Assembly (NCBI GenBank): GCA_028748975.1
Contig: JAQTPI010000005.1
Coordinates: forward strand, 8,933-72,932
DNA: 64,000 nucleotides
DNA from: Patescibacteria group bacterium
GTDB taxonomy: Bacteria > Patescibacteriota > Patescibacteriia > UBA2196
Reading direction: 5' to 3'
Shown: piece by piece, positions 6,082 through 56,004 of the stretch
How the letters are laid out: each line of letters begins with the position of its first letter
Numbering within the stretch: the first letter of the stretch is position 1
Program-made: the position numbers and the translations under genes
The notes under the pieces: model-generated
What the model saw: only the letters and a program-made list of their open reading frames with translations
Told to the model about the DNA's origin: nothing
Database searches by the model: none

Positions 6082-6092
6082 TTTTTTTACAG

Positions 6093-6252: not shown

Positions 6253-6263
6253 CTTAATAAACT

Positions 6264-15568: not shown

Positions 15569-16501
15569 TTATCTGTAATTATTCTCCGTCCACCAATAGA
15601 GCGCTTTGGTGTCCTGAAAACGATTATCATCGCTTTCCGCGCCGAGGATGACGGTAATAATTTTTCTGCCCTTAACTTCACCTAAAGTCGCCAGGCAAAA
15701 CATGGCTTCATCGGTAGAACCAGTTTTTCCAGCCAAGACCTTAAACGAATCATGATCTAGAAGATCGTTGGTGTTTTGGATCTGATAAACACCAGCTTCA
15801 GTCTGGAAGCTATAGTTTTTAGCACTGACAGCCTGATAAATTTTTTCGTTAGTTAGTGCTTTTTGTAAAATTACGGCTACTTCCGCGGCAGTGGAAACAT
15901 TTTTGGGTGAAAGTCCGGCAATGTCTTCAAAATGAGTTTTTTTTAAATTTAGAGCAATGGCTTTTTTATTCATAGCAGAAATGAAAGAGTTTTTATCAAG
16001 GCCGGACAATTTTGGAAATAAATTTACCGCTGGGTTGATGGAGCCGATTAGGGCGATATTAAAAATTTGTTCCGCGGTTAAATTTTCTTCGGCGGAAAAT
16101 TTGTATTCTCTGCCATCGGAATCCTGAAAATAACTTAAGTGGGTTTGGGTTTGCCAATTGGGATTTTGGTCCAAAAAAACCAAAGCGGCCATGAGCTTAC
16201 TAATGCTCGCGATTGGCCGCACAATGTTTTTATTTTTTTCATACAAAATTTCACCGCTGGCTTCGTCAATTGCCAAAGCCGATCCGGCGGAAATATCCAA
16301 ATCCAAAATTTGATTGGTGATTCGCTCTGGTGTTGCTACTTCCCCATTATTATTCACTTGTACGCCCAAAACCGCGCCGTTTTTATCAATCGGCGCGCTG
16401 GATGTGAAAATTTGAGCGATTAAAATTAAAGAAAGTAATAGATTAGCTAGCATGAAAGGTAATAAGTAATAAGTAACTAGTAATAAGGGCGGCACCGTCA
16501 T
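15569..16501 (-). CDS. serine-type D-Ala-D-Ala carboxypeptidase (S11-like); true start probably near 16453
   Basis: SxxK motif ASISKLM, N-terminal TM; N-terminal 16 aa of listed ORF derive from stop-free reading of heptamer repeat. Confidence 0.75.
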   Translation of the reverse strand: MTVPPLLLVTYYLLPFMLANLLLSLILIAQIFTSSAPIDKNGAVLGVQVNNNGEVATPERITNQILDLDISAGSALAIDEASGEILYEKNKNIVRPIASISKLMAALVFLDQNPNWQTQTHLSYFQDSDGREYKFSAEENLTAEQIFNIALIGSINPAVNLFPKLSGLDKNSFISAMNKKAIALNLKKTHFEDIAGLSPKNVSTAAEVAVILQKALTNEKIYQAVSAKNYSFQTEAGVYQIQNTNDLLDHDSFKVLAGKTGSTDEAMFCLATLGEVKGRKIITVILGAESDDNRFQDTKALYWWTENNYR

Positions 16502-16555
16502 CCCCTCCTTTTTAAGGAAGGGTGCGAACGAGAGCGAGCGGGGTGGTTATATAAA

Positions 16556-32824: not shown

Positions 32825-33901
32825 ATGCCTATTTTTTGGTCAAAATTTAAGAAACCGATTCTGGCTTTGGCGCCGATGGCCGGGTACACAGACTCGGCTT
32901 TTCGCATTTTATGTTTGGAAAACGGCGCGGATGTGGTTTACACAGAAATGATTTCCGCCGAAGGACTGGCGCGGCAAAACAAGAAAACATTAAAGATGTT
33001 GGAATTTTTACCGGGCGAGAAAAATGTGATTGTGCAGTTGTTTGGAACAAATCCGGAGGCTTTTGGGAAAGCAACGGAGATTATAGGTAAAAGATCCCAT
33101 CGGTCCGCCGTCAGCGGACCTCGGGATGACATCAACCCCATCGTGGGGATTGATGTCAACTTCGGCTGTCCAGCCAAAAAGGTTTTTCATACCGGCGCTG
33201 GGGCGGCACTCATGAATAATAAAAAAATGGCGCGAGAGATTGTGGAGGCGGTTTTAAAAAATACTAAGCTGCCGGTGTCCATTAAAATTCGCAGTCAAGT
33301 GAAAAACACCACGGCAGAAGAATTTATAGAATATCTGAAAGATCTGCCAATCGCCATGGTGATGGTTCATGGCCGGACACTGGCGCAGGGTTTTTCTGGC
33401 GAGATTAATTATGAAGCGATAAAAAACATTAAAAAACTTTTACCAAAAGTGATTGTTCTTGGTAATGGCGGAATCAATTCAGTGGAAGACGCGAGAATAA
33501 TGTTGGAAAAAACCGGTTGTGATGGGGTGGGTATTGCTAGAGGCGCGTTAGGCCAGCCGTGGATATTTGGAGATATAAAAAAATATTACAACCACCCTGG
33601 TCCGATACTACATCGGACCACCCCTCCTTTAAAAGGAGGGGATGCCACCGTCGCTATCCTCCCCTTTCGAAGGGGAGGTGCTCCGACCGCAGTCGGAGCG
33701 GAGGGGTTGAAGATCTGGCCGGAAATAAAATCTACCATGCTTGCTCATGCCAAGCTTTTTCTCAAACAAAATGAAAATTTAATTCCTCTGCGCAAACACT
33801 TAGTTCATTATGTCAAAGGTCTGCCGAACGCTTCGGAATTGCGGCAGAAATTGATTCAAGTGGAAACATTGGCGGAGCTTGAGAAAATTTTAAAGAAATA
33901 A
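32825..33901 (+). CDS. dusB: tRNA-dihydrouridine synthase
   Basis: LAPMAGYTD...FRILC TIM-barrel Dus signature; two in-frame element insertions. Confidence 0.85.
   Translation: MPIFWSKFKKPILALAPMAGYTDSAFRILCLENGADVVYTEMISAEGLARQNKKTLKMLEFLPGEKNVIVQLFGTNPEAFGKATEIIGKRSHRSAVSGPRDDINPIVGIDVNFGCPAKKVFHTGAGAALMNNKKMAREIVEAVLKNTKLPVSIKIRSQVKNTTAEEFIEYLKDLPIAMVMVHGRTLAQGFSGEINYEAIKNIKKLLPKVIVLGNGGINSVEDARIMLEKTGCDGVGIARGALGQPWIFGDIKKYYNHPGPILHRTTPPLKGGDATVAILPFRRGGAPTAVGAEGLKIWPEIKSTMLAHAKLFLKQNENLIPLRKHLVHYVKGLPNASELRQKLIQVETLAELEKILKK
33094..33131. mobile_element. short palindromic module in-frame in dusB
   Basis: atcccatcggtccgccgtcagcggacctcgggatgaca. Confidence 0.5.
33621..33705. mobile_element. 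paired-hairpin element (family B) in-frame in dusB
   Basis: cccctcctttaaaaggagggg...cctcccctttcgaaggggagg... encodes TTPPLKGGDATVAILPFRRGGAPTAVGAEG. Confidence 0.6.
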
Positions 33902-41775: not shown

Positions 41776-42678
41776 TTATTTAATCAGGGTAAGCCAATTT
41801 TTATATTTATCAACACTACCAGTTACCACCTTTCGATATTGCTCTTGGAGAGCATTAAAAACAGGTGAGGGCGCTGAATTTTTAGAAAAATATCTGTCAA
41901 TTTTGGTGACATATTCCAATTCAATGCCGGTGCCGGTTAAAAAAATATCATCAGCCTGGCGCATAAAATCCGGACGAATATTTTTTTCATAAACTTTTAT
42001 TTTCAGGTCGCGCGCAATTTGGATGATGCTGTCTCTGGTAATACCACCCAGAATATTTTTTAATTTTGGCGTATAAAGAATATTGTTTTTTATAATAAAA
42101 ATATTATTAACCGCTCCTTCGGCAACAAACCCCTTAACATCAAGAAAAAGAGGCTCGTCAAAGCCGGCCCGGCGCGCTTCTAAAAAACCAAGAAGCCCAT
42201 TGGCATAATAGCCGCTGATTTTTGCTTTTAAATCAACGGTGGCAGGATCCAATCTTTTAATTTTTACAATTTTCATCTTAACTGATTTTTTTTGCAAACT
42301 ATCTTGCCAGGGCCAGATTAAAACCATAACGGTCAATTTGGCACCAACGATATTGATGCCCATTTTCGGTTCAGAATAGAAAGCAATGGGCCGAATATAC
42401 CCGGAAGTTGCCTTGTTAACCCTGATAAGATTAATGATGGCTTTGGCAAAATTATTTTTTGTAACACCCAGATCCATGTTTAAAACAGAGGCGGAATAGA
42501 AAAATCTGTCCAGATGCGCTTTTAGCCGAAAAATGGCCGATCCTTTTTTGGTTTTATAAAAACGGATGCCCTCATAAACACAAGCGCCATAATTAAGGCC
42601 CTGATGAAAATTCAAAAAACTCGCCTTTTCCAAGGGAACTATTTTTCCATTAAGCCAAATTTTATTTATTGGTTTCAT
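41776..42678 (-). CDS. class IV (branched-chain/D-amino acid) aminotransferase
   Basis: PLP fold IV pattern, 300 aa. Confidence 0.75.
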   Translation of the reverse strand: MKPINKIWLNGKIVPLEKASFLNFHQGLNYGACVYEGIRFYKTKKGSAIFRLKAHLDRFFYSASVLNMDLGVTKNNFAKAIINLIRVNKATSGYIRPIAFYSEPKMGINIVGAKLTVMVLIWPWQDSLQKKSVKMKIVKIKRLDPATVDLKAKISGYYANGLLGFLEARRAGFDEPLFLDVKGFVAEGAVNNIFIIKNNILYTPKLKNILGGITRDSIIQIARDLKIKVYEKNIRPDFMRQADDIFLTGTGIELEYVTKIDRYFSKNSAPSPVFNALQEQYRKVVTGSVDKYKNWLTLIK

Positions 42679-43391
42679 TTGATGGCGATGAAATATAATG
42701 TTTTAGCTGATTTAATTAACTTTATTTTGGAAAAACCGCTTTTTTTTAAGGCACGGGCAAATTCTTTTCTGGTAAACAGATAAAAAGAGTTTTCATCAAT
42801 TATAAATTCGGATTTCTGGCCAGTTTTCCAAAGCGCGGAATGTTGTCTATGTTTTAATATCTGGCCAGTTATTTTATTCGTTTCAACCACCAGGGCTTGT
42901 TGTTCGCCTTTTTTATAGTAATTGATAAGGGCCGGATATTTTTTTTCTCCCTGATAGTTGGGGGCGTTAAATATAAATTTCCCGCCCGTTTTGAGTGAAG
43001 CAAAAATTTTCTTCAAACCGGCTGCCAGGGCTTTGCTGCCCATAAAATAATTAATGGCTTGCCTGATACAAACCGAATCAAATTTTTTCTGATAGCTTAT
43101 TTTTTGCATATCAAGCTTCGTAACCTGATATTTTTTTATCCCCTGTTTTTTGGCTTTTAATTTTAATTCTCGGAGCATTCCTTGGCTGGCGTCTAAACTT
43201 ATAACCCGAAAACCCTTTTTTAATAAAGGAATGGTGATTTCACCGGTGCCGGCTGCTAAATCTAAAATTAATCCTTTTTGGGGGGTATTCTTCTCTACTA
43301 AAGCAACAAAATCCGGCACGCTTTTTAAATATCGCTGATAGAGCAAGTCATAAAATTCCGGAAATTTTTTGTAAGAATTACCTGAGTACAT
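42675..43391 (-). CDS. class I SAM-dependent methyltransferase
   Basis: motif I LDLAAGTGEIT. Confidence 0.75.
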   Translation of the reverse strand: MYSGNSYKKFPEFYDLLYQRYLKSVPDFVALVEKNTPQKGLILDLAAGTGEITIPLLKKGFRVISLDASQGMLRELKLKAKKQGIKKYQVTKLDMQKISYQKKFDSVCIRQAINYFMGSKALAAGLKKIFASLKTGGKFIFNAPNYQGEKKYPALINYYKKGEQQALVVETNKITGQILKHRQHSALWKTGQKSEFIIDENSFYLFTRKEFARALKKSGFSKIKLIKSAKTLYFIAIK

Positions 43392-44610
43392 AATTAACGG
43401 TTTCTGTTAAATCCCGGCCAAGCGCGACAAGCCCGTGGTTTTTAAGATTAATAATTCTGATATTTTTTTTAAATAAATTGAGAGGTTTAATCGCGTAATT
43501 TAATGTGCCAGGAGTATAAGGAAAATCTGTGGTCGGCGCTGTTTTGATAAAACTGTGAGTGTGGACGACGGCATTAACTTTGGAAAATTTTTCAAAAATA
43601 GCCGCCGTTAACACGGCATTAAAAGACGCTTTTCTCTCCCCCACCGCTTCAATAAAAATTTTTCTTTTTTGCCAATCAATTTTTTTTACCAACACAACAT
43701 CATCCGGACGAAGAATTTTTTTATTGCTTTGGCGGGCGGTAATTAAAAAAGAATTGCCACCAACTCTGAGCGATAAGCTGCCGTGGCCAGATTTGGAACC
43801 GGCAAAAAAATCAGTCATGAGGCCGTGTTTGCTTAAACGGGCGCAAAGCTTTTTAAAAAGTTTTATTTCGTTTTTGTATTTTTTATTAATTGATTTGTTA
43901 ATTACCAAAACAGTTTTAAAATGAGCGCTTAAAGTGCGTTTTTCCACAAATTCCATGATTTTTTCGGATAAATTAGGCTCCTGAAGTTTCAAAAAGCCTT
44001 TTTCCGGAGTTACAATAAATACTTCGCGCCGCCCTGATTTTATTTTAGAAAGATCATTGGCGATAACGAGGTCGGATCCGTTTTCTAAACCGGATTTATA
44101 GGCCACCTCCAACAATTCTTTTTTTGCGACGCCCGATAACAACTTGAATCCCACCTGAAAGAGTGGTTGTTTTGACCAAGATTTGACAAATTTAATAACT
44201 TTGGGAAGACGCTGGAGATGGAGAGTTAAGACTGATTTTACTGAAGAAATCTTTCCCTGATGTGGCCGGATTCCATAATCAGGAACAGCGGCGCCCAGAA
44301 AAACGCAATCTATTTTAATTCTATTTAATATTTTTTTCAACTCTTTAGCATAATCATCATAGGTTTCATAAACAATAAGTTTTAATTTACGGTTTGCATT
44401 TGGAATTTTGGCGTTTTTCGCGTATAAATAGATGACTTCATGATTTCTGTTTAAGGCAGTTTGGGCAATCTTAGCTGGAAATGAACCAGTGCTAAAATTT
44501 CCAATGTGCCTGACATCGTCAATTTTTACTATGGGTCCGCCAGCAGTGATTAAAACGCGCATATCTTTATAATTTAATTGATTTTCTCTAAGCGGGTGGC
44601 GGCCCCGCAA
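43378..44610 (-). CDS. coaB: phosphopantothenate-cysteine ligase (CoaB) fused to class II aldolase/adducin-like domain
   Basis: N-terminal LITAGGP..IDDVRHIGNFSTG CoaB signature; C-terminal VVHTHS class II aldolase motif. Confidence 0.65.
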   Translation of the reverse strand: MRGRHPLRENQLNYKDMRVLITAGGPIVKIDDVRHIGNFSTGSFPAKIAQTALNRNHEVIYLYAKNAKIPNANRKLKLIVYETYDDYAKELKKILNRIKIDCVFLGAAVPDYGIRPHQGKISSVKSVLTLHLQRLPKVIKFVKSWSKQPLFQVGFKLLSGVAKKELLEVAYKSGLENGSDLVIANDLSKIKSGRREVFIVTPEKGFLKLQEPNLSEKIMEFVEKRTLSAHFKTVLVINKSINKKYKNEIKLFKKLCARLSKHGLMTDFFAGSKSGHGSLSLRVGGNSFLITARQSNKKILRPDDVVLVKKIDWQKRKIFIEAVGERKASFNAVLTAAIFEKFSKVNAVVHTHSFIKTAPTTDFPYTPGTLNYAIKPLNLFKKNIRIINLKNHGLVALGRDLTETVNYVLR

Positions 44611-44660
44611 GTATGCGGGGTCTTCGCTCGCTACGCTCGCTTCGAGAATCTTATATTATA

Positions 44661-44732
44661 AGCGGGTGAGCGGAATTGAACCGCCTTCCTTAGCTTGGGA
44701 AGCTAATATAATAACCGTTATACGACACCCGC
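44661..44732 (-). tRNA. tRNA-Gly (anticodon CCC)
   Basis: acceptor gcgggtg/cacccgc, anticodon stem ttagc/gctaa loop ttCCCaa, T-loop ttcaatt. Confidence 0.7.
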
Positions 44733-44779
44733 GACATAAAATTTTCAATTTTTAATTTTTAATTTTTAATAAAAAAATT

Positions 44780-45163
44780 TTATTCGCGTGTAAACACATA
44801 CTCCACCCACTTCTGCCAATTTGGCCGCGTATCTTTTAAGGTTTGATTTTTACTATTTTCATCGCGATTGATGATAATCACCCCCTCCCCTTCTTTTTTA
44901 TAATTTAAATTCTGGCGAGCTTGGAGTTCCAAATAATCTTTGCTTTCAGAATAACTTAAAAGCCGCGCTAACTCCAAATTAGAAGTTTCCAGTTTTTGCG
45001 CTTCCAGACGCAATTCATTCAGGCGGGAATTGATTTTTCCTTGCCGCCTGTTTTCCTGAAAAAAAGCCAGGCCAATAAACAATGCCAAAAGCAGCGCCAA
45101 TAAAATAAATTTACCGGAATAAAAAAAGCTGACAAATTTAGATTGCGTTTGGTGATGATACAT
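44780..45163 (-). CDS. FtsB/DivIC-like septum formation initiator
   Basis: single TM then coiled coil, 127 aa. Confidence 0.55.
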   Translation of the reverse strand: MYHHQTQSKFVSFFYSGKFILLALLLALFIGLAFFQENRRQGKINSRLNELRLEAQKLETSNLELARLLSYSESKDYLELQARQNLNYKKEGEGVIIINRDENSKNQTLKDTRPNWQKWVEYVFTRE

Positions 45164-45177
45164 AGCAACAAGTAGTT

Positions 45178-45310
45178 TATCTTGAGCGGAGCAAGAGATT
45201 TTGTCGATTACTAAATTATTTATTAACGAATTATAAATTAACGGATTATTTTATCAACGAGATCCCTCCGCTCGTCCCGAAGCCTCGGGACTCAGTCGGG
45301 ATAAACTGCT
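45178..45310. mobile_element. MITE-like element
   Basis: ...cgagatccctccgctcgtcccgaagcctcgggactcagtcgggataaactgc. Confidence 0.55.
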
Positions 45311-45419
45311 GGCTTTTTAAATCGCCACTACCCAGGCCAACATACTAATGATAACAAAAAAAGAGATGATGATCCAGAAAATTTTAATTAATTTTTTGCG
45401 TTTTATTTTCATAACAATG

Positions 45420-45557
45420 AGTAATAAAGATATAGGGAAATAAGGATATAGGGATATAAGTTTGATTTTTTATTTCCTTATATCCTTATATCTTTTATTA
45501 TTTTAAATTGAGATTCCTCGGCTCTCCCGAGTACTCGGGATCGCTCGGGATAAACTG
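45420..45557. mobile_element. MITE-like element with AT-rich core
   Basis: taaagatatagggaaataaggatatagggatataag...ttccttatatccttatatc...gagattcctcggctctcccgagtactcgggatcgctcgggataaactgc. Confidence 0.6.
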
Positions 45558-45565
45558 CGGTAGAA

Positions 45566-47404
45566 TTATCTCTTTAACACCGACAAATATGCTTCCGCCG
45601 GAATATCAACTCTCCCCCGCCCCAGGGCTTTCATTTTTTTCTTGCCTTTTTTCTGTTTGTCCAAAAGTTTGTTTTTGCGCGAAACATCGCCACCGGAAAG
45701 AGTGCCGATGACGTCTTTGCGATACGGCGCCACGCGCGAAGAAGCAATAACTTTGCCGCCTTTTTGCTTGCCAATGTTTTGATAGCCGAGCGTGGCCTGA
45801 ATTTTGATTTCAAACATCTGCTTGGGCAAAGTGTCTTTCAAGGCATCCACGATTTTTCGGCCGACTTCATAGGCCGAATCGCGATAGACAATCGTGGCCA
45901 AAGAATCTATCATTTCATCGGCGACCACAATATCCAATCTTTCCACTTCGCAGGGACGATAACCGATTAAATCATAATTAAGCGAGGCATAGCCGGAAGA
46001 AACGCTTTTTAATTTGTCATAAAAATCAGTCAAAAGCGAGGCCAAGGGCAATTCATAATGCAAATTGAGGCGGTTTTCCGACAAGTAGGTGGTGTTGATG
46101 TAGCTGCCGCGTTTTTCCGCCACGAGCTGCATAATTCCGCCAAGATATTCTTTGGGTGAGATGATGTCAATTCTGACCCAGGGCTCTTCCACCGCGATAT
46201 TTTGCAGATTATTGGGTAGTTCCTGCGGCGAACGAATAATTTTTTCTTTGCCATTTTCAATTAATTTGTAGGCGACGCTTGGTACAGTAACCATCAAATC
46301 CAATTTATGTTCACGGTGCAGGCGTTCCTGAATTATTTCCAAATGCAAAAGACCTAAGAATCCGCAGCGGAAACCCGGGCCGAGCGCCGGCGAATGTTCG
46401 GGCTCAAAACTTAAAGAAGCATCAGTCAGTTTTATTTTTTCCAAGCCCTCGCGCAAATCTTCAAATTCAATTCCTTCTTTGCAAAAAAATCCAGCAAAAA
46501 CCATGGGCTTAATTTCTTTATATCCCGGCAAAGCCAAAGATGAAAAATTTTGGTCTTCTTTATTTTTCGCTAAAGTCACGGTGTCGCCGACACGACAGGA
46601 AGAGAGTTCTTTAAAACCGGTAACAATGTAACCGATTTCACCGGCGCGCAAAATTTCGCTTTTGATTTTTTGCGGTTTGAAATAGCCGACTTCCAGAACT
46701 TCGCTTTCTTTGTTGGTACCCATGAGTAGAATTTGATCGCCGCGTTTGACTTCGCCGTTCAAAAGGCGCACATAGGCCACGACGCCGCGATAATCATCAT
46801 AGACCGAATCAAAAATCAGAGCTTGAAGTGGTTTTTCGTTTTCGCCAATTGGCGCGGGTACGTTTTTTATAATTTGCTCTAATATTTTTTCCACGTTTTC
46901 TCCGGTTTTGCCGGAAACTTTTAAAATTTCAAAATTGTCAGCCAGAGATTCAATAATCACTTCCTTTATTTCTTCCTCGGCTTCAGGCACATTGGCATTA
47001 GGCAAGTCAATTTTATTAATGACTGGGATGATTTTCAGGCCCTGGTCAGTGGCCAGGTGATAATTGGCTAATGTTTGCGCCTGTACGCCTTGGGTGGCAT
47101 CCACGAGCAAAATGGCGCCTTCCACCGCGGCGAGCGAACGGGAAACTTCATAGGTGAAGTCCACATGGCCGGGAGTGTCAATCAAATTTAAAATATATTT
47201 TTGGCCGTCTAATTCATAGTCCATGCGCACCGGTTGTAATTTGATGGTGATGCCCCGCTCGCGCTCCAATTCCATCGTGTCCAAAAGTTGGTTCATCATT
47301 TTTCTTTTTTCCACGGTTTTGGTCAATTCCAAAAAACGGTCAGCCAGAGTTGACTTACCGTGATCAATATGGGCGATGATGCAGAAATTACGGATGTTAT
47401 TCAT
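45566..47404 (-). CDS. lepA: elongation factor 4 (LepA); ORF-track N-terminal extension to 47476 probably artefact of stop-free heptamer repeat
   Basis: AHIDHGKST G1 motif at MNNIRNFCIIAHIDHGKST, full LepA architecture. Confidence 0.9.
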   Translation of the reverse strand: MNNIRNFCIIAHIDHGKSTLADRFLELTKTVEKRKMMNQLLDTMELERERGITIKLQPVRMDYELDGQKYILNLIDTPGHVDFTYEVSRSLAAVEGAILLVDATQGVQAQTLANYHLATDQGLKIIPVINKIDLPNANVPEAEEEIKEVIIESLADNFEILKVSGKTGENVEKILEQIIKNVPAPIGENEKPLQALIFDSVYDDYRGVVAYVRLLNGEVKRGDQILLMGTNKESEVLEVGYFKPQKIKSEILRAGEIGYIVTGFKELSSCRVGDTVTLAKNKEDQNFSSLALPGYKEIKPMVFAGFFCKEGIEFEDLREGLEKIKLTDASLSFEPEHSPALGPGFRCGFLGLLHLEIIQERLHREHKLDLMVTVPSVAYKLIENGKEKIIRSPQELPNNLQNIAVEEPWVRIDIISPKEYLGGIMQLVAEKRGSYINTTYLSENRLNLHYELPLASLLTDFYDKLKSVSSGYASLNYDLIGYRPCEVERLDIVVADEMIDSLATIVYRDSAYEVGRKIVDALKDTLPKQMFEIKIQATLGYQNIGKQKGGKVIASSRVAPYRKDVIGTLSGGDVSRKNKLLDKQKKGKKKMKALGRGRVDIPAEAYLSVLKR

Positions 47405-47509
47405 AAGCTTGAATATAAATAAATTATAGCTAAAATTTCTTAATTTGGCAATTGAAAGGTAATAAGTAATAAGCAACTAGTAATAAGGGGATTGTAAATA
47501 AAAGATAAA

Positions 47510-47540
47510 ACAAAAAACCGCCTTTTTTGGCGGTCTTCTT
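47510..47540 (-). terminator. hairpin terminator (T tract on minus strand)
   Basis: aaaaaaccgccttttttggcggt. Confidence 0.5.
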
Positions 47541-47544
47541 TCTC

Positions 47545-47700
47545 GCCATTTACTGGCGCAGGAATCCAGAGTTTAAAATTAATGTTTTTGAGAAGAGAGA
47601 TTTTGTTTTTTCCCAAGGCGGCGGGCGCCCGAAGGAACCGTGCCGGTGAATGGGAGTTTAATTCTAAACTCGTTTTTTGTTTTCCCGCGCCTGTAAATAA
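47545..47700 (-). ncRNA. candidate small ncRNA, long imperfect hairpin (possibly SRP/4.5S-like); strand uncertain
   Basis: ends pair (ggcgcagg/cgcgcctg; agtttaaaattaa/ttaattctaaact), apical gcgcccgaaggaaccgtgcc resembles SRP domain IV GGAAGGAAGC region; terminator adjacent on minus strand. Confidence 0.3.
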
Positions 47701-47770
47701 TGACAAATAACTGACAACTTATAATATACGACTTATAATTTTCAACTAAAGTATAGCAAAAACAATAAAT

Positions 47771-47810
47771 AGTAACAAGTAATAAGTAATAAGTAACTAG
47801 TAATAAAGAG
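47771..47810. repeat. heptamer tandem repeat (TAAYAAG)n
   Basis: agtaacaagtaataagtaataagtaactagtaataaag. Confidence 0.6.
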
Positions 47811-48921
47811 AAAGTTTGATTAATTTTGCTATAGCAAAATTAATCAAACTTAGTAATTGGGAAAGAAAATAAAAAACGGCCAAGAGTGAGGGACTCCCGA
47901 GCCGCGTGAAACTTTTAAGAAAAATTGCCTTACCGTAAAAAATTTACCTCACCGGAAATGACAATTGTTTCAGTCGTTCCCGGGAGAATTGTTGTCTCTG
48001 TATTGTTTTTTTCTTCAAAAAAATGTATGAGGCGAGTGGACGGGTTAAAATCTATTTGCCCGCTCACCACTCTCCACTCCCTACTTCCAACAGTGACTGT
48101 TCTCAACATGTTTTCCTCCAATCATTCTGAAATTGTAATTGCGGTTCTGATCTTTCCCTCACCTGACTTCCCTTTTCTTTCTAAATCGCGAGTGAACGCG
48201 ATTTTATACGCGAGTTTACGCCAAAAGAAAAAAGGATGCCGGGTGAAGGGCGACGGTGTGACGTCGCTTTGAAAAAAAATGGAAAGGGTGTTTGATATCC
48301 CAAAAGAGATAAATGGCACCAAACACCCTTTCCCCTGTCCCAGCAAATTGTTTTGACGTGCCCAAGACCGGGCCGCTACTGACACTTTGCTGGAGAAGTG
48401 GATTGAAGTCGGGAGAAAATTTACTCCTCACTCGCCTTGATGTCCTTTCGAACAGTCATAGACTAATTGCTTCAACCCCCTCATTTATAATCTTTTGAAA
48501 AATTATAAATGAGGAGGAAGAAAATTTTGGTTTATTTAAATTATTAATTTTATCAGATTATTAGATTATTAACTTGCGCCCGCGGAACTGGAGATTAGCT
48601 TTTGATGCTGCTAGAGAAAGAGCATCAAGAACCATGAAGATTATTGAAACCCCTCGCTTTTAAGCCGTCGTCTGATCTCGCGGTTTAGAGCGGAAGAGAC
48701 CTCTGGGCGATTAGCTTGGAATATGGAATATTGAAGCTAAGGCCACGAGAGCAAACGGCTTAGTAGCAAGGGGGAGCATGGTTTGTTCTGTCTGCCTGTA
48801 TTTTGCCGAAGCAAAATTATGGCAGACCAGCAACTTCGCACGAGGGAAAAATTCAGGTTGCCCCAAATTTTTCCTCTTTGAAACTGCTGGCTAATCTCCA
48901 TGTCGGCGGGGAGATTTTTAT

Positions 48922-49041
48922 CCTCCCCTTTCGAAGGGGAGGTGGGTTGAGCGGAGCGAAACCCGGAGGGGTTGTGTGATTATTTTTACCACAACCACCC
49001 CGCCTCGTTTCACTCGGCACCCCTCCTTCGAAAGGAGGGGA
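48922..49041. mobile_element. paired-hairpin element (family B)
   Basis: cctcccctttcgaaggggagg ... cccctccttcgaaaggagggg. Confidence 0.6.
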
Positions 49042-49104
49042 TATAAAAATCAAAATTTATATTTTTAACGAGCATTTTTCCAATCTCTGGCTTCTACTAG
49101 AGGG

Positions 49105-49192
49105 TGTCATCCTGATCCGCCGGCTGGCGGAGAAGGATCTCGTAGAATTTTTACGAGATTCCTCCCCCGAGTACTCGGGGTTCGGAATGACA
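49105..49192. mobile_element. MITE-like element (family A)
   Basis: gtgtcatcctgatccgccggctggcggagaaggatctcgtag...gattcctcccccgagtactcggggttcggaatgaca. Confidence 0.65.
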
Positions 49193-49267
49193 TTCGTTTG
49201 TAAAACTCATAGATTGAGGGCCGAAACGATTAATGAAATATCATTTCGGCCTGATGTGGTGATTTTA

Positions 49268-49441
49268 CTACGAGGGTAATTCATCCAATGTTTCGTGGTC
49301 CTTCATCTTGCGTAGGTCTTCACGAACCTTGCGCAAGTCTTGGCGGGTCTTTTTGTTTTCGTATGTTACATGACTTACGACTATTATGGAGCACCCACCT
49401 ATGCCCACAAGTAAAAGAACAAGCGGCACTAACATATGCAT
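49268..49441 (-). CDS. small single-TM peptide (57 aa; ORF track 49268..49507)
   Basis: MHMLVPLVLLLVGIGGCSIIVVSHVTYENKKTRQDLRKVREDLRKMKDHETLDELPS; leader ttaaaagatgggggtatgcatATG nearly identical to leader of peptide gene at 52170. Confidence 0.4.
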   Translation of the reverse strand: MHMLVPLVLLLVGIGGCSIIVVSHVTYENKKTRQDLRKVREDLRKMKDHETLDELPS

Positions 49442-49641
49442 ACCCCCATCTTTTAAATGAACTTTTTCCGACCGAGAATCGGCCGGGGAAATTTGGATGG
49501 CCACCAAAAGGAGTATTAACCTTCTTCGGTTATCCTGACCCGGAGGACAGGAGCCTTTGCCTATCCGCCCATCGCGGACATTAGAGGTGTTTCTCCTCTA
49601 ACGGCTGGTGGCCGTTAATTTTTATTTTTCTAAATTATCAA

Positions 49642-49707
49642 TTGAGAAGGCGGGATTCGAACCCGCGACCGCCTGTTCCCCGAGCAGGTGTGCTGACTTA
49701 CTCCCCA
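49642..49707 (-). other. non-canonical tRNA-like element (acceptor plus T-arm, truncated body)
   Basis: minus strand tggggag...gcggg ttcgaat cccgc cttctca a; acceptor pairs with 2 G-U; only 34 nt between acceptor and T-arm, no canonical anticodon arm. Confidence 0.35.
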
Positions 49708-50255
49708 ATCTTTTATTTTTATTTTTCCAAACCATCAATATAAATGTCTGGATTTCCGCCTAAGGTGGAAATGACAAAATTGATAACTTGGAAAAATTGG
49801 GGAAAGCTGATTCTGAGAGGCGTTATGACGCCTAGAATCTCTTTTCCCCAATGCCATTTCTAGGGCTGGCGATACCCTTATTACCCGCATACACGATGGT
49901 ATGCAACTTTGAAGCTCGGGTCGATTGGACCCTGTGAGCCACCCGCGGCAACCGCGGCCAGCTCTTTGCCCGCTTTTTTGTCTGACCTCTGACACGCGAG
50001 CTAATCAGAGGCGGATGTAATGAGAGACGGGAGAAATGGGCGGCTGATCATCGCGGTGTTCATGAAACCCGCGCGGATTTACCGGGCACTTCGCCATCAT
50101 CAACCATTTAAGAACCCAATCCTCAATCACGTCTCTCTCGAAAATGCACCGATGTTGGCAATCACCATCTTTTAGGGACGGGTCAGCCCGTTTGTCTCCA
50201 GAACAATGCCGGAGGACGGGGCTCGTAAAACGAGCGCGAACATTGGCACATTTTG

Positions 50256-50328
50256 TCGGAATGGCAGGATTCGAACCTGCGGCCCCATGCTCCCAAAGCA
50301 TGTGCGCTACCAGCTGCGCTACACTCCG
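50256..50328 (-). tRNA. tRNA-Pro (anticodon TGG)
   Basis: acceptor cggagtg/cattccg (one G-U), D-arm tagcgcagctggtagcgca, anticodon stem catgc/gcatg loop ttTGGga, T-loop ttcgaat. Confidence 0.75.
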
Positions 50329-50342
50329 AATAAATATTTTGT

Positions 50343-50468
50343 TGTCATCCCGAGCGAACAACGACCTCTCTCCATCTCTCCCCTTATTAAGGGGAGAGGG
50401 ACGAACTGTTCCCCTCTCCTTTACAAGGAGAGGGTCGGGGGTGAGGTCGTCACTCAATCGGAATGACA
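50343..50468. mobile_element. composite element (family A ends with family B-like paired hairpins)
   Basis: gtcatcccgagcgaacaacgacc...ctccccttattaaggggagag...cccctctcctttacaaggagaggg...gtcgtcactcaatcggaatgaca. Confidence 0.6.
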
Positions 50469-52056
50469 AAATAATTTATTTTTTTAAACTTCTCTAAGCC
50501 ATCAAATTTTATAAAATTACCTTGATAGCTTGGAAAAATGGCGGAGATATAGAATCGCCGCCGAGAATGACTGTTGTCGTCAACGCATTGGACCTTAAAC
50601 CTTTCACTGTCGGGTGTCCACGGATGTCGCGAATCTCTCAAACTTGAAAAAAAATCGGGTGGCGGTCGCGAGGTTGACCTGGAACCCGCACAAAGGCAGG
50701 CTCGCCACAAAGGGCGCGATCAGCGGAAAGTAGTCGGCATGTCTTAAGCCGCGCTACTATCACCGAATGCGCGCCGCCACCCGGTTCGTGCGAAAGTCCC
50801 CCGCAATTCCCTAAGAACGCCTCGGCGGGTTAATTCCCGAAGGGACTTTCCAGCACGTGCCAGGGTAAAGGACGATGAACCGCCCTGGTTCGGTTTCGGT
50901 GTTCGGCCGGCAGTTGTTGTGCCGAAGCGGCAGGCTGGGAGAAATCGGCGAAATTCCGACTCGTCCGCTACACCCGGCGCTTTTCTCGTTCGGGCCCCCG
51001 GTTTGACGTCCGCGGGGGCAGGTTCAGCCGCACTCACGATGGCGGCTTTTCGATGTGGCCGGCCGAAACACCAGTCACGGACCCGGGAGCTTTCACCCGG
51101 TTCGCTTTTTTCCACACCGGATTGGGCCGGAGGGACGCGGCGATAGGGCGAGGTTGCGGCGAACCGCTGGGGAACCATCCCATAAACCTCTGGTTTTCTC
51201 TCCACATCCTATCGTTAGTGCGTCCGCCCCCAGCCATCCGGTCCGGACAGGCATGTGCAGCGTGGCTCGCGCGGTTTGGGGCTTCAACGCAAGACGCTCC
51301 GCCCCAAATCGCAATCCGTCCAACTGCCCCACGACTGGCGCAGGGACATGCCCGCTGCTTGGCCGCCGTTGTGGCCATCGTACCCGTCCGAATCCGCCCA
51401 CGGCTTTGGCCTAGCTGAAAAGCTTTGGCCCCGATGCCGCGCGCGGAATTTTCACAGGATCTTCAATGTTGGATTCACCAAGTAACGTAGCTGCAAGCGC
51501 CCAGACGCCTGTGCAATCCCGCCAGCTTGGCGATGAGTTTGTTGGCCATGGTATGGCCTCCGTCGACAGAAATTCAAAACTAGGTTTTTCGGCCAACCAC
51601 CCACGGTATTTGGTTGCCGAATACTCTTTTGGCCTTACGCTAATTAATTTTTGCTGCCTCCGTAGAGATAGACAAAATAATTAATTAACGTTAGCGTTTA
51701 CATCCGTGGCGTAGCTGCAATCGGCCCCCCGACTGTGCAATCTCGCCAACAGATTTGTTGCGTGTCTATTGGTTTCGTATGCCCTCCTTTTCGCTTAGGC
51801 GACCCTGGCCCCACGCTGGGTTAGGTCGAGTTAAAGTAAGGATTGGCAAATTTTTTTATTTCCTCCTCTATTTAATAATTTGTTTTCGCCTTAATGGGCG
51901 AGATGTTAAGTATTAAGAAATATTAATACCCAACATGCCGACCACAGTTAATAAAAAACTCAAAACTCAATTAACAAAACTTAAGACTAATTAAGAAATT
52001 GAAATAAGGATCCTTGCCGACCAACTGTGATGGTATATCAGTCGGCAAGGATGTTT

Positions 52057-52170
52057 TTACTTTAGAAGCACCCGAGAAATTTGATCAAGTTGATAGATGA
52101 TGGTAATTAGGGCCACCACAACTAAGCCCATAAAAAACCCTATCATACGTTTCTCTGAGTTTGTCAGCAT
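52057..52170 (-). CDS. small hydrophobic peptide (37 aa), type I toxin-like
   Basis: MLTNSEKRMIGFFMGLVVVALITIIYQLDQISRVLLK; conserved upstream caaggaaaa...ttaaaagcgggggtatgca; hairpin terminator ccttgccgac..gtcggcaagg downstream. Confidence 0.4.
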   Translation of the reverse strand: MLTNSEKRMIGFFMGLVVVALITIIYQLDQISRVLLK

Positions 52171-52302
52171 TGCATACCCCCGCTTTTAAGTGAAAGATAT
52201 TTTTCCTTGTTTCAATTCCCCACTAATTGTGAAATTGAAATAAGGAACCTTGCCGGCTGAAACACTGTGATGTGTTCCGGCTGGCAAGGATTTTGAAGGT
52301 TA

Positions 52303-52467
52303 TTACAAAAGATGCAGCACCTTCATATTGAGTATTGTGATGGCCACGATTATAATCCCAATCAGCACGCCGTTTTTCATTCCTTGGGAGTAACCGTTGG
52401 TGTAACCGTCGTCATATCCCCTGCCGTAACCAATGGAAAGACCTATCCCTAAACCCATAATGACTGA
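52303..52467 (-). CDS. small Gly/Tyr-rich single-TM peptide (55 aa; ORF track 52303..52509)
   Basis: SD aaaaaaggagacaatt then MSVIMGLGIGLSIGYGRGYDDGYTNGYSQGMKNGVLIGIIIVAITILNMKVLHLL; same upstream gggaattgaaacaaggaaaa element and hairpin terminator as neighbour. Confidence 0.45.
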   Translation of the reverse strand, partial: SVIMGLGIGLSIGYGRGYDDGYTNGYSQGMKNGVLIGIIIVAITILNMKVLHLL

Positions 52468-52756
52468 CATAATTGTCTCCTTTTTTATTATGAATTTTCC
52501 TTGTTTCAATTCCCCAATATTTAATTTTAAAGGTCAGCGATTTTTTTCCGTAATACTTAAGTATAGCACAACCACAGAACTTGTCAAGTGGATAACTTAA
52601 ATAAATTCTAAAAAGGCTGTTTTTTGGCTAATTTAAGCCAAAACAAATACCCGAATTAGTACGAATTTTACCCGAATTTATCCGAATATTACGGAATTTT
52701 TAATTTTAACAAAATATTAAAAAATATCAAATTTGGGGATAAGTGGGGATGAAAAA

Positions 52757-52830
52757 GGCGGTCCGATCCGCCAGTTGGCGGATCGGACCGCCTCAAAATA
52801 TATCTTTATATCCTTATATCTTTATTTTTA
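52757..52830. mobile_element. MITE-like element
   Basis: ggtccgatccgccagttggcggatcggaccgcc...tatatccttatatctttat. Confidence 0.5.
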
Positions 52831-52875
52831 GTTTTTGTCTTCCCTTATTACTTAATTACTAGTTACTTATTACTA

Positions 52876-55800
52876 CTATCTCTCCGCCACCACCCCAAAA
52901 TATCCATCTTTTAATAAATCCGCGGAATAAGTAATCACGCTTCCCTCTTCTGCCACGCCAGAGCCGGCGGTGGCCTGAATTTTATAATTGGCTGGCAAAA
53001 TTAGTTCGCTTTGGAAATCAATCGCGTTCATACCAAGTTGTTTATCAACAACCAAACTGTATTTGGCTTCGTCATTTTTTCCAAATAGAGCCGCAAACCA
53101 TTGTTTAATTTTATTATTGCTTTTGGCCGTACCAAACTGGAAAGGCAGTTTATATTTGATGGTGACTGTTTTTTCCTGGCCCGGCGCCACTTGCAGCCAG
53201 TTGCCAAAAACAGTTTTGCCAAATTCAGAAGAAACACGCGTGCCCGTGGCTTCGTCCAAAGAAACATTGGTTTCCACCGCGGCCAAAGTTTTGTCAGCAC
53301 TCATGCCGTCTTGGCTCGCGGAATATTTAAAAAGATAATCCGGATTAAAATTAAAACCGGTGGCGGAAATAAGTTCCGCGCCAGCGGGCACATAGAAACG
53401 GACATAATCAACATTATTGTCGCCTTCAAAAAGTTTACCCAATTCGCCATTATGCTGGCGCGTCAAACTGACGGTCGCGACCATGGCACCGGTTACGTCA
53501 ACTTCAACAGAGTGGCGCACGGTGTTTTTGATAACCGCATCGGTTTTGCCGCCGGAGATATTGGTATGCACGACCATTAAATAATCCTGATTATTTTCAG
53601 TGGCGCGAATCTTACCGGCCCAGCCAAAACGTTCGGCCAAATCTTCCGTATTTTTATCAGAAAAATAGAAAAGAATTTTTTCCTCGCTTAAAGCTTGGCT
53701 TAAGCCGGCGAGTACCGGCAGATAATCCTTGGTGTTTAAATTCATCAGACGCTCCAAAAGCACGGGCGCCATATCCGCGATAATTTCTTTGGGCCGATTT
53801 TTATTCTTGTCATATTCCAATTCCACGGCCGTTTGCATGGCAATGGTAAAATTTTCCGCGCTTAAGGTCTGCTTATATTCTTTCATTTCAATCGGCCCCA
53901 CAATTTTCAATAAATTGGCAACAGTATCTTGAGTTAAGCTGATGATGCCGTCAACCGAAGAACCGCCGTAATTATTCTCATAAAACCAAATTATTTTCTC
54001 GGCACTTGTCGGCCAATTCGGAAACCAGTTGGCATTCCAAATCTGCCAAGCCGGCGAAAAAATCTGCAGTGGCTTCGGCGCGGCCACTAAAACTTGGCTG
54101 CTGCTTTTTAAATCATAAAGGCCGCCGCCGGGAATATCCATTTTTTTGACCCGGCCCTTGTCCACATCCACCACGGCAAAAGAACCCATAAAACCACCGG
54201 TAGGCCTTAGTTCGTTGGAATTTTGGAAAACTACCAAATAACGCTTGGAAGTTTCGGCACCCAAAATATCCTGGCTGAAAAGTAAAATATCTTTGAGGCC
54301 GGCAATGGAGGTTTGCCAGTTTTTGGCGCCAATTTGCAGCGCGGAGAATTTTTCTTGGGCATCACTCGGCAATGAATCTTTGTCAATTTCATTAATCAAG
54401 TTGAGCGCGGCATTGATTTTTGTTTCTTCCGAACCAATGGTCTGGTGCAAAAAAGAAATTTTTTCCGTGAGAGCTGGTTCTGGCGCGTTAAAGACCGAAA
54501 GAGCTTGAGTAATTTTTTGGGCCGAAGCGGAAAGATATTGCCCGGCTGCCAGAAGTTTTTCGCCGTCGCGCGCTTTGGGTACCAGCTTGATTAAAGAATT
54601 AGTCAGAGGCCCCAATTCTTTAATTTGCTTTTGCGCCAGATAAAAAGCACTTTCAGCGCGGCCAAAATTAGCCACGGCGGCAGTGATGTCGTTTTCTGAA
54701 AAATTGCCGGCTGCTTGTTCCAAATAATTCAAACCCTGCGAAGAGGTGCCCAAAACATCGCCTTGAGTTTTTTGAGCCGCGCGCCAAGAATTCCAAACCA
54801 GAAGAGGCAAAACGATAATCAAAGCGGTCAAACCAAAATTAATCAAAGGTTTTAAAGAAAATTTTCTTTCGGCTAAAACCATGGCCGGGGCTTCGCGTTT
54901 TTTAAAAAGATAGCCAATTGACCGGATTAAATAGGAAATATTAAACTTGAAAAGTTTGGTGATTTGCCGAACGACAAAAGTTAGGCCAGCCCAAACTCCT
55001 TTTAGGGTGTGATCGACTACAAAATCCAAAAGGCGAAAGGGCGCGGTTAAGGCCTGCCAGAAAAAATATATAAATTTTCCCAAAAGAGTGAGTGGTAAAT
55101 CAAAAGTCCAATAAAAAAAACCGTGGGTGCGCGGAGTGGCAGGAACAGCGATAAAATTATCGGTGCCGCGCGCCAAGCCGGAAGAAATTAAATCCACTTT
55201 CACTTTTTTTATTTTCTTTTTTTGCTTGTTGATTTTTTTCAAATCGGCTTTCAGAGCCAAGTTGGCGGCGTCTTCCGGCATATCAAAACCCAAAATTTCA
55301 CGAACATGCTTTTGGCGCGTGCTTTGTTTTTCTTCTTCCCAAAGATATTTGACTTCGGACATGGGGGTCAAAGGAGCGGTTTCTGTCGTTTCTTTAATCT
55401 GGTAATCTTTAAATTTGGGCGCGCGCAAATCCACCACATGGGCGGAAGCACGGCGGTTATTTTTGATTTTAAGTTTGGATTCTTGAGGCAAATCCACCAA
55501 GGGTTCGGCTGTGACTGGAAAGATATAATTTTCCGGCAATTCACTTGGCAATTCGGAAATATTTATTTTTGCCTTGAATTCCTGCCAGGTCATTTGCGGC
55601 AGAACTTTATTATCTTTTTCTATTTCTTCCATTTTATTTTCAATTTCCGGCAATTTTTTTTCTATTTTTTCATCATTTTCCGCCAGACTGATTAAAACTC
55701 GCGGCAGAGAGATGTCCATGACAAAATTTTTGTGCGGACGGCCGCGCGCGCCTTTTTTGGGCGCGTATTTCAAAAGCCACTCTTCTTGAGGCGAGAGAAC

Positions 55801-56004
55801 TTTGTGCGGACGGCCGCGTTCACGTTTTTCCATTTTGGCCAAAGCCGCCAATTCTTCCGGCGTCCATTCTTTCTTGGGCCGGCCACGCGGTCTTTTTGGC
55901 TTATTTTGCAACGCCAAAAGCTCGTCCGCTGTGAAGACTTTACGAGGTCTACCACGTTTTTTCTTTTCCGTGAACTGTGAATTTTTTATGGTATTTTCTG
56001 ACAT
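52876..56004 (-). CDS. large membrane protein: N-terminal AT-hook repeats, TM region, DUF4012-like extracytoplasmic domain
   Basis: four GRP-core AT-hook-like motifs (KRGRPRK, RGRPKK, RGRPHK x2) in first 90 aa; hydrophobic segments; C-terminal region with LRPTGGFMGSF motif; 1042 aa. Confidence 0.65.
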   Translation of the reverse strand: MSENTIKNSQFTEKKKRGRPRKVFTADELLALQNKPKRPRGRPKKEWTPEELAALAKMEKRERGRPHKVLSPQEEWLLKYAPKKGARGRPHKNFVMDISLPRVLISLAENDEKIEKKLPEIENKMEEIEKDNKVLPQMTWQEFKAKINISELPSELPENYIFPVTAEPLVDLPQESKLKIKNNRRASAHVVDLRAPKFKDYQIKETTETAPLTPMSEVKYLWEEEKQSTRQKHVREILGFDMPEDAANLALKADLKKINKQKKKIKKVKVDLISSGLARGTDNFIAVPATPRTHGFFYWTFDLPLTLLGKFIYFFWQALTAPFRLLDFVVDHTLKGVWAGLTFVVRQITKLFKFNISYLIRSIGYLFKKREAPAMVLAERKFSLKPLINFGLTALIIVLPLLVWNSWRAAQKTQGDVLGTSSQGLNYLEQAAGNFSENDITAAVANFGRAESAFYLAQKQIKELGPLTNSLIKLVPKARDGEKLLAAGQYLSASAQKITQALSVFNAPEPALTEKISFLHQTIGSEETKINAALNLINEIDKDSLPSDAQEKFSALQIGAKNWQTSIAGLKDILLFSQDILGAETSKRYLVVFQNSNELRPTGGFMGSFAVVDVDKGRVKKMDIPGGGLYDLKSSSQVLVAAPKPLQIFSPAWQIWNANWFPNWPTSAEKIIWFYENNYGGSSVDGIISLTQDTVANLLKIVGPIEMKEYKQTLSAENFTIAMQTAVELEYDKNKNRPKEIIADMAPVLLERLMNLNTKDYLPVLAGLSQALSEEKILFYFSDKNTEDLAERFGWAGKIRATENNQDYLMVVHTNISGGKTDAVIKNTVRHSVEVDVTGAMVATVSLTRQHNGELGKLFEGDNNVDYVRFYVPAGAELISATGFNFNPDYLFKYSASQDGMSADKTLAAVETNVSLDEATGTRVSSEFGKTVFGNWLQVAPGQEKTVTIKYKLPFQFGTAKSNNKIKQWFAALFGKNDEAKYSLVVDKQLGMNAIDFQSELILPANYKIQATAGSGVAEEGSVITYSADLLKDGYFGVVAER

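Follow-up and report, generated by a model that had tools for sequence, protein, structure and literature searches.

What fills a 5.4-kb gap without convincing protein genes in an otherwise gene-dense bacterial chromosome? The question is raised by the spacer between lepA and the gene for a DUF4012 protein in a 64,000-nucleotide (nt) stretch from a Patescibacteria group bacterium (contig JAQTPI010000005.1, positions 8,933 to 72,932; hereafter the window, in which all coordinates below are given and where features lie on the minus strand unless stated otherwise). The window is gene-dense, has a guanine–cytosine (GC) content of about 40% and is of Patescibacteria type; its LepA matches, at 100% identity, a protein of an NCBI 'Patescibacteria group bacterium' metagenome-assembled genome, and its nearest named relatives, by comparison of LepA, are Kuenenbacteria. 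We read the spacer as a patchwork of minus-strand units rather than one giant RNA, that is, as an insertion hot spot holding several separate transcription units beside two structured RNAs, E2 and E1, and we put the probability of this account at roughly 0.55.

A protein-poor spacer divided by predicted terminators

Once the spurious open frames of its GC-rich DNA are discounted, the gap runs from 47477 to 52875, between lepA (45566–47400, with a start near 47400 in an open reading frame (ORF) of 45566–47476) and the gene for the 1,042-amino-acid DUF4012 protein (52876–56004). It is 7.6 times longer than the next-largest gap in the window, which measures 709 bp and holds tRNAs. The original prediction, made from the letters alone, had described most of this region as a block with few ORFs and no convincing genes for proteins longer than 60 amino acids, and our data bear this out: the period-3 signal is 0.6–1.4 in the block versus 18–24 in the flanking genes, and a six-frame Pfam scan of the block returned zero domains. 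Scans with Rfam, of the whole window at gathering score and of 47000–53500 at E ≤ 10, gave tRNA matches and noise only, as did scans of the relatives' loci. In the 47000–53500 interval, models of RNase P RNA and of introns belonging to groups I and II likewise found no match at E ≤ 10, and ARAGORN called no transfer-messenger RNA (tmRNA) in the window or in the relatives' loci.

It had been proposed that the spacer is one very large RNA of the GOLLD or ROOL kind, and this idea would suit a long, ORF-free, non-coding region that lies beside tRNA genes, has a higher GC content than its surroundings and the genome, and holds many hairpins. However, no covariance model of a large-RNA family matched at E ≤ 10, at least seven predicted hairpin-and-U-tract terminators divide the stretch, small ORFs and miniature inverted-repeat transposable elements (MITEs) interrupt it, its middle is unconserved between close relatives, and relatives share separate islands only. 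A single giant RNA is, on these grounds, highly improbable.

The block is a lineage-specific expansion

We retrieved the loci of relatives through the DUF4012 protein and through the closest LepA homologues, and found that the gene order DUF4012, lepA, tRNA-Gly(CCC), tRNA-Thr(CGU) is kept. In three relatives with LepA proteins 70–81% identical to that of the window (L002, L003 and L023), the spacer measures 0.8–1 kb, has a GC content of 31–33%, lacks tRNA-Pro and contains E2 and E1 only; in a further one (L026) it is 2.35 kb long and includes an orphan gene of 186 amino acids. The closest relatives by LepA identity, L021 (92%), L022 and L009 (87% each), have spacers of 2.6–4.4 kb that are likewise ORF-poor, and these share with the window a series of colinear islands, at 70–92% identity, with unalignable DNA in between. 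Because the gap is so short in the distant relatives and the close ones share islands only, we conclude that the block has grown, in a lineage-specific manner, out of a small ancestral spacer.

E2 and E1 are conserved structured RNAs

E2 (48578–48911), delimited by alignment, RNAalifold and nhmmer, was found by nhmmer ahead of lepA in every lineage examined. It is 310–335 nt long here, 306–315 nt in the close clade and 195 nt in distant relatives, with ends that read AUGGAGAUUAG...CUAAUCUCCAG in every lineage. RNAalifold on seven sequences predicted 64 pairs, 18 of them compensatory, at −54.8 kcal/mol, versus 41 pairs at −37.1 kcal/mol (17.7 less) for the reverse strand. Because the opposite strand pairs worse, and with C–A mismatches, we assign the E2 RNA to the minus strand of the window. 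The minimum free energy (MFE) z-score of E2 is −14, and a search of E2 alone against Rfam at E ≤ 10 returned no family. As modelled here, E2 is thus a structured non-coding RNA by its compensatory changes, its strand asymmetry and its presence in all lineages examined.

A CGGCUUA/UAAGCCG pair spotted by eye had prompted us to consider E2 as an RNase P RNA, a candidate that we ruled out: the helix formed by the pair occurs in the long variants only, it lies on the strand opposite to the P4 reading, no model matched, and E2 has no P4-type arrangement on the strand that is backed by its G–U pairs. Diverged RNase P RNAs from the candidate phyla radiation (CPR) may score very low with Rfam models (PMC8172020).

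E1 (47505–47702) adjoins lepA on its upstream side, just outside the start of the block as first flagged. This small RNA of about 170–190 nt has its own terminator (47512–47539) and follows E2 in all lineages examined with nhmmer save L022, which is without it. In the E1 alignment 9 of 20 pairs are compensatory, with covariation in both the closing and the apical stems, and the unpaired AAAUCUCUCUUCUC is invariant. In size, in its closing and apical stems, in its large conserved single-stranded stretch and in having its own terminator, E1 gives an impression of 6S RNA (SsrS). It differs in that its predicted fold has a one-sided bubble and in that a search against Rfam at E ≤ 10 returned no family, 6S included. 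Judged by the comparison of spacers, E2 and E1 are the ancestral content of the spacer in this Patescibacteria family.

A GC-rich body with conserved ends

X1 (50566–51858) is a GC-rich, orphan, non-coding body, defined by its GC profile, its want of a period-3 signal and its lack of homologues. A very GC-rich core had been placed at 50470–51850; the GC content is indeed 58–67% over about 50600–51500, versus about 40% for the window, and falls to 35–48% at the edges of the proposed core (50470–50600 and 51600–51850). The middle of X1, at about 50800–51480, reaches 62–67% and is unique to this genome. When the frames of X1 (a 153-amino-acid ORF, plus the five remaining frames joined end to end) were compared with 5.8e9 proteins, only an identical Logan contig was found; comparison with phage and plasmid DNA gave no match. 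X1 has no second copy in the window, and the core contains no arrays or tandem repeats. Scans of viral contigs with three conserved patterns gave zero matches or chance ones inside coding DNA.

The GC-rich segment starts, at its 5′ end, with a two-hairpin leader followed by GGAGG (51859–51945; 'island 6'), which is 80% identical in L009 and 92% identical in L022. Across three lineages the leader has 17 pairs, 98% paired, with two compensatory changes, and its G–U pairs arise in the minus-strand orientation only. A promoter-like site, seen by eye, stands directly ahead of the leader in L022, which suggests that a transcript running into the GC-rich body has the leader at its 5′ end. Inside that body, a 42-nt nested hairpin of the form ATTGCACAG-hairpin-TGCAGCTACG occurs twice: copy 2 (51707–51748) matches the single copy of L022 (6981–7022), and copy 1 (51486–51525) overlaps a possible micro-ORF of 24 amino acids, MANKLIAKLAGLHRRLGACSYVTW, led by a Shine–Dalgarno (SD) sequence. 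The copy in L022 can be read as an SD-led micro-ORF of 25 amino acids. Because conservation is at the nucleotide level and the inner and outer stems differ in sequence with their pairing kept, we favour an RNA motif over a micro-ORF as the reading of the 42-nt element.

The 3′ domain of X1 (50648–50786) has a branched fold followed by U8 and matches L022 7311–7346 at 84% identity. It is closed by a long-range helix of 9–13 bp (50786–50772 with 50672–50657), and RNAalifold on the two sequences gave 27 pairs, of which 7 are altered on both sides. The X1 unit then has a terminator-like end, a hairpin plus AUUUUUCC (50532–50562) whose U-tract is the start of a repeat motif, M; equivalents, a hairpin plus (A/C)UUUUCC, are found in L009, L022 and L021. 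Because the leader lies at its start and conserved helices and U-tracts lie at its end, the core is probably transcribed. As far as its sequence allows us to say, it probably forms a non-coding unit of transcription, conserved at both ends and, in between, weakly constrained and perhaps inserted.

At the position of the core, L009, L022 and L021 also carry GC-rich (50–60%) non-coding DNA, of 0.55–1 kb. A few short matches to the window core are colinear, and the rest is unalignable on either strand; an inversion of the core between relatives was considered and dropped, there being no significant similarity on the opposite strand. The main competing explanation for these observations is a clade-specific family of large, fast-evolving RNAs, made up of the GC-rich segments, the leader, the 42-nt hairpins, the 3′ domain and the tRNA-like modules described below, in which selection on structure or stability holds the GC content. 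Its ends would be conserved with compensatory changes, as observed, and non-coding, GC-rich DNA of 0.55–1.4 kb does occupy one position in four lineages. The sense strand folds with z-scores of −3 to −6.5 in several 400-nt pieces, versus about 0 in coding controls, and in L021 a TTGACA-17-TACAAT promoter, found by eye, precedes a segment with a z-score of −7.8. However, X1 itself, computed in 400-nt pieces against shuffles, gave z-scores of −1.7, −2.7 and −6.4, and the central 700–800 nt of the window core reach only −1.7 to −2.7. The cores are, moreover, unalignable between genomes whose LepA proteins are 87–92% identical, whereas E2 and E1 align at 70–88%; the length varies 2.5-fold; and there is no Rfam family. 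We consider such a family possible, with the odds clearly against it. Unlikely, too, is its more specific form, in which leader, GC-rich body, 3′ domain and tRNA-shaped modules would constitute a new clade-specific class of non-coding RNA of 0.6–1.4 kb, with a hypervariable centre and tRNA-like processing signals at its ends, and E2 and E1 would be further, family-wide RNAs.

The contrast between 63–67% GC in the core and 40% in the genome might also point to a pseudogene, or to an assembly chimera with the DNA of a GC-rich organism, and an independent assembly, Logan contig L001, does end within a MITE (MITE-3) close to the core. Yet there is no period-3 signal, domain or homologue in any frame; from 50422 onward, the DUF4012 gene included, L001 and the window are identical, and the two assemblies likewise agree where the core meets the DUF4012 side; and the flanks are in the order seen in relatives, which also carry GC-rich DNA here. 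A pseudogene or chimera is very unlikely. A foreign gene or pseudogene as the source of the core had been tried as a candidate and was rejected when six-frame Pfam, protein, phage and plasmid searches gave only tRNA and the identical contig.

tRNA-Pro, a partial tRNA copy and a tRNA-shaped element

As the original prediction had it, the spacer contains a tRNA-Pro with anticodon UGG (50255–50328), called by ARAGORN and matched by Rfam RF00005 at 69.2 bits; it is missing from the spacers of L009, L021 and L023. Between it and the partial tRNA copy TLE-A lies X2 (49851–50254), a second GC-rich, orphan, non-coding segment with a GC content of 53%, a folding z-score of −4.9 and no period-3 signal, which is unique in the window. 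X2 has a terminator-like end, a hairpin plus AAUUUUUCC (49790–49849; z-score −5.4), and the stretch 49500–50260 has a folding z-score of −10.2.

TLE-A (49642–49707), likewise anticipated as a tRNA-like element, scores 32.4 bits with the Rfam tRNA model (gathering score 29) and receives no ARAGORN call. It copies a Pro-like tRNA from the D-loop onward (the 3′ two-thirds of the molecule), and its best match among the tRNAs of the window is tRNA-Pro (78% over 46 nt, on the same strand and 614 bp away), with 548 bp of orphan DNA between the two. Aligned with tRNA-Pro, TLE-A lacks the 5′ acceptor strand and half of the D arm, and no D arm remains; its anticodon loop reads UCGGGGA and its fold has a z-score of −0.4. 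TLE-A thus falls short of a full cloverleaf, which would call for a D arm, an anticodon loop of 7 nt with U33 and an acceptor stem of 7 bp. The sole Rfam match to tmRNA (RF00023), at 21.8 bits versus a gathering score of 47, covers only the T-arm and acceptor of TLE-A. Both tmRNA and tRNA-Sec were rejected as identities for the tRNA-like elements, in view of the lack of an ARAGORN call and of a fitting anticodon or tag frame. TLE-A is conserved in L021 (944–1001) and is bracketed in the window by motif M, a 19-bp inverted pair without assigned strand (49779–49797 with 49721–49739) that has a further inverted copy at 49624–49641. Duplicated RNA-like modules had been reported in the block; repeats are present, and they are short, at 20–46 nt.

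An intact tRNA-Pro, orphan DNA of atypical composition and a Pro-like 3′ tRNA copy on the same strand resemble what integration at a tRNA gene leaves behind, and a decayed integrative element at tRNA-Pro was among the explanations first offered. For the interval 49642–50328 this is plausible: tRNA-Pro, X2 and TLE-A may be an old integration scar, although the repeat has diverged too far to establish a duplicated att site. A wider version has the whole block, or at least 49642–51858, as a decayed element that entered at tRNA-Pro, with the GC-rich DNA as a remnant of its cargo. It can draw on the MITEs and the IS110 element found in the same spacer and on the tRNA-Pro(CGG) that stands, with a partial duplicate, at the block edge of L022 (both described below). 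But no ORF in the block has a Pfam domain in any frame, so that no integrase was found; other element or cargo genes, coding traces, and phage or plasmid similarity beyond the tRNA are lacking as well; the repeat, 78% identical over just 46 nt, is far from near-identical, and only 548 bp lie between the copies; most of the GC-rich core is on the other, upstream side of the tRNA gene, outside the tRNA copies; and the ends of the core are conserved in relatives that have no tRNA there. The wider version is therefore doubtful.

Next to TLE-A is TLE-B (49494–49613), which is shaped like a tRNA: a stem of 8 bp closes it, arms lie inside, and a hairpin resembling a T-arm abuts the 3′ strand of that stem. 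Its copies are too unequal in length for MAFFT alignment and were folded one by one; the MFE folds share their shape in the window, L009 and L021 (z-scores −5.2, −4.1 and −2.3, respectively). In the same order, the closing stems are GGCCACCA/UGGUGGCC, GACCACCG/CGGUGGUC and GCCGGUGA/UCACCGGC: all 24 of 24 cells pair, with compensatory variation at 6 of the 8 positions. The GUUCGACUC T-loop is retained in L009 and L021. TLE-B measures 72–120 nt across lineages, with expanded arms, and neither ARAGORN nor Rfam gave a hit in L009 or L021; it is not a recognizable tRNA.

tRNAs and tRNA-like structures punctuate longer transcripts in several systems, among them the tRNA–mRNA co-transcript of the Escherichia coli thrU–tufB operon, the tRNA punctuation of mitochondria and MALAT1–mascRNA. 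TLE-B is placed in a similar way, between an upstream RNA and the 5′ untranslated region (UTR) of a small gene, ORF 3, and could be an RNase P or RNase Z signal; it departs from these examples in its variable length, its expanded arms and its unrecognizable tRNA identity, and any processing is putative. Because it abuts the 5′ UTR of ORF 3, our best guess is that TLE-B is a processing or stabilizing signal between the upstream RNA and the ORF 3 mRNA.

A group I intron in a split tRNA, a lead taken from PMC13011429, was also considered for the tRNA-like elements and rejected, as no intron model matched and the inserts of TLE-B are too short.

Small genes and predicted transcription signals

The series of small genes and RNAs is headed by a promoter-like TTGACA-16-TATACT (52560–52587), which has 11 of 12 consensus matches and a TG and is kept in L009 (13323–13347; 96%) and in L022. 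As originally predicted, there are three short hydrophobic ORFs, each led by an SD sequence and followed by a hairpin terminator; two of these ORFs are called as genes on contig L001. ORF a (52303–52470; 55 amino acids, Gly-rich and hydrophobic, with GGAG ahead of it and a gene call on L001) is followed by a hairpin terminator with direct repeats (52236–52297) that matches L009 13690–13750. ORF b (52057–52170; 37 amino acids, hydrophobic, SD-led, in the ORF list and on the L001 contig) is followed by a terminator (51991–52055) that is paralogous to that of ORF a and matches L009 13730–13759 at 90%; by these terminator repeats, ORFs a and b are tandem paralogous units. ORF 3 (49268–49441; 57 amino acids) encodes one transmembrane segment and the motif R.DLR..REDLR, behind a 5′ UTR hairpin and SD (49443–49493) that are 88% identical to L009, and its terminator (49205–49256) is conserved in L009 at 15151–15208. 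The ORF 3 peptide is 30% identical to a 74-amino-acid ORF of L009 (E 0.02). The peptides of ORFs a and b show no conservation among the relatives compared, and the small ORFs are lineage-specific except for ORF 3.

Between E2 and E1, all ORFs in 47925–48500 had been dismissed as overlaps in GC-rich non-coding DNA. That judgement is questionable for 47930–48109, a candidate hydrophilic ORF of 59 amino acids with GGAGG 5 nt ahead of its ATG, which has no homologue in relatives and ends at a hairpin-and-U-tract terminator (47866–47900) conserved in L009 (16441–16488). The strong 14-bp stem noted nearby (48281–48294 with 48320–48333) is real and, being followed on the minus strand by U8, reads as an intrinsic terminator with a 16-bp hairpin (48273–48333; fold z-score −4.8), which is not conserved in relatives. 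An AT-rich stretch of 40 nt that is perfectly palindromic, AAGTTTGATTAATTTTGCTA/TAGCAAAATTAATCAAACTT, is found at 47812–47851, between the E1 promoter region and the terminator at 47866–47900.

Small hydrophobic ORFs that each have an SD sequence and a terminator, some of them as tandem paralogues, are also what a type I toxin–antitoxin locus would look like, the peptides being toxins under the control of antisense RNAs. The three ORFs of 37–57 amino acids, each with a hydrophobic segment and a terminator, fit this picture, and a promoter-like site lies antisense within ORF a (TTGAGT-17-TATAAT; 52328–52356, plus strand), the sole hint of an antisense RNA. However, that site is a bare consensus match from a scan not enriched over shuffles, and no antisense RNA is conserved; in searches of ORFs a, b and 3 against Pfam, NCBIfam and PADLOC nothing scored above any curated cutoff; the peptides are unconserved, bar the weak similarity of ORF 3; and a toxin locus would explain less than 0.6 kb of the 5.4 kb. 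We judge it improbable. Of the earlier idea of a small-RNA or toxin locus, the small-RNA half survives in E2 and E1, neither of which had been singled out, and the toxin label, in want of a family match, does not.

Mobile elements and insertions

Three MITEs, rather than the two first reported, lie in the spacer, none with an assigned strand. MITE-3 (50344–50467), an inverted repeat with termini GTCATCCCGA/TCGGAATGAC, sits between a promoter-like AT-rich stretch and tRNA-Pro. MITE-2 (49106–49191) is recognized by its termini, has relatives elsewhere in the window and is absent from this place in L009, and MITE-1 (48914–49045) is an inverted repeat with relatives at 2351–2468, 16500–16548 and 33588–33681. 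All three are short and non-coding with related copies elsewhere in the window, as befits MITEs. Because the MITE termini GTCATYCCGA/TCGGRATGAC occur 34 times in the window, versus 5.4 expected, this small genome must hold many short palindromic elements. The MITEs differ between relatives.

In an L009-type strain (L046), a gene for an IS110-family transposase (525–1595) stands 300 bp upstream of lepA, and beyond the break, on its downstream side, the strain matches L009 at 100% identity; because this IS110 element is in the same spacer, we conclude that the spacer takes insertion sequence (IS) insertions. In L022, tRNA-Pro(CGG) follows a partial 5′ duplicate at the edge of the block (5940–6260), flanked by the inverted CCACCACACCAATTAAA/TTTAATTGGTGTGGTGG. 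A small Cys-rich ORF (MDICKNCNV...CECGCKTK) adjoins this tRNA-Pro(CGG) across an assembly gap (a run of N).

A 22-nt motif, AGTAATAAGTAACTAGTAATAA, with stops in all three frames, occurs seven times in the window (0 expected), always at gene ends: at 7055, 16465, 47465, 47771 and 47785 on the plus strand and at 52853 and 62612 on the minus strand. The copies at 47785 and 52853 form an inverted repeat of 24 nt, 96% complementary, on either side of the ORF-poor block, and the motif is present in L009 and L022 too. Cumulative G−C peaks broadly at 42000–50000, and the replication terminus may be near; the skew maximum is broad, and no dif-like site scored ≥24/28.

A model of the spacer

We propose that the spacer is an inflated insertion hot spot that would be transcribed, on the minus strand, as several separate units. 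In the sub-lineage of the window, as the comparison shows, lineage-specific material has filled the slot upstream of E2 and the one that separates E2 from E1, namely SD-led ORFs with their own terminators, tRNA-Pro(UGG), TLE-A, TLE-B, three MITEs and two GC-rich segments. Along the minus strand, the order starts with the promoter-like site, ORFs a and b with their terminators, the leader, the GC-rich body and the hairpin plus AUUUUUCC, and continues with MITE-3, tRNA-Pro, X2, TLE-A, TLE-B, the ORF 3 unit, two MITEs and E2. The 1.3-kb core is most likely a non-coding transcript that would start at the leader, carry the 42-nt hairpins inside and end at the closing helix and U8, and then at the second hairpin and its U-tract. 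Its middle, at 62–67% GC, would be weakly constrained inserted DNA of unexplained source carried inside the transcript, and tRNA-Pro, X2 and the partial tRNA would most simply be the scar of an old integration at the tRNA gene. Nothing here requires a new kind of system; E2, E1, TLE-B, the leader and the 3′ domain are unannotated RNA candidates.

Several observations weigh against this account. The expanded form is present in only three relatives, one of which is represented by identical strains; with so few relatives, covariation rests on 2–7 sequences. (The L009-type contigs are 99.98–100% identical, and strain polymorphism thus provides no gauge of constraint.) In four lineages whose genomes are AT-rich and packed with genes, GC-rich non-coding DNA persists at one place, which is hard to square with an inert insert and suggests some selection. 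The integration scar comes without an integrase, and its repeat, only 78% identical, is either old or was never identical; L021, moreover, has TLE-A and no tRNA within 900 bp upstream. The promoters and terminators are no more than predictions from consensus matches or folds, and scans for them were not enriched over shuffles (13 versus 8.8 and 11 versus 8.9). Finally, L001 ends at 50422, inside MITE-3, and there may be a mis-join across that element.

Implications

The genomes of Patescibacteria are small and dense, and little has been charted of the non-coding RNAs that they contain; in this setting, a protein-poor region of 5.4 kb is an outlier. In one sub-lineage, the spacer adds an element shaped like a tRNA and a GC-rich segment that is probably transcribed, and the cause of the persistence of GC-rich non-coding DNA in this slot is unexplained. 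Across the family, the spacer ahead of lepA carries at least two structured RNAs, E2 and E1, that have no Rfam family. The same chromosomal slot has repeatedly gained small genes, tRNA copies, MITEs and an IS element, despite the strong genome reduction presumed for these bacteria.

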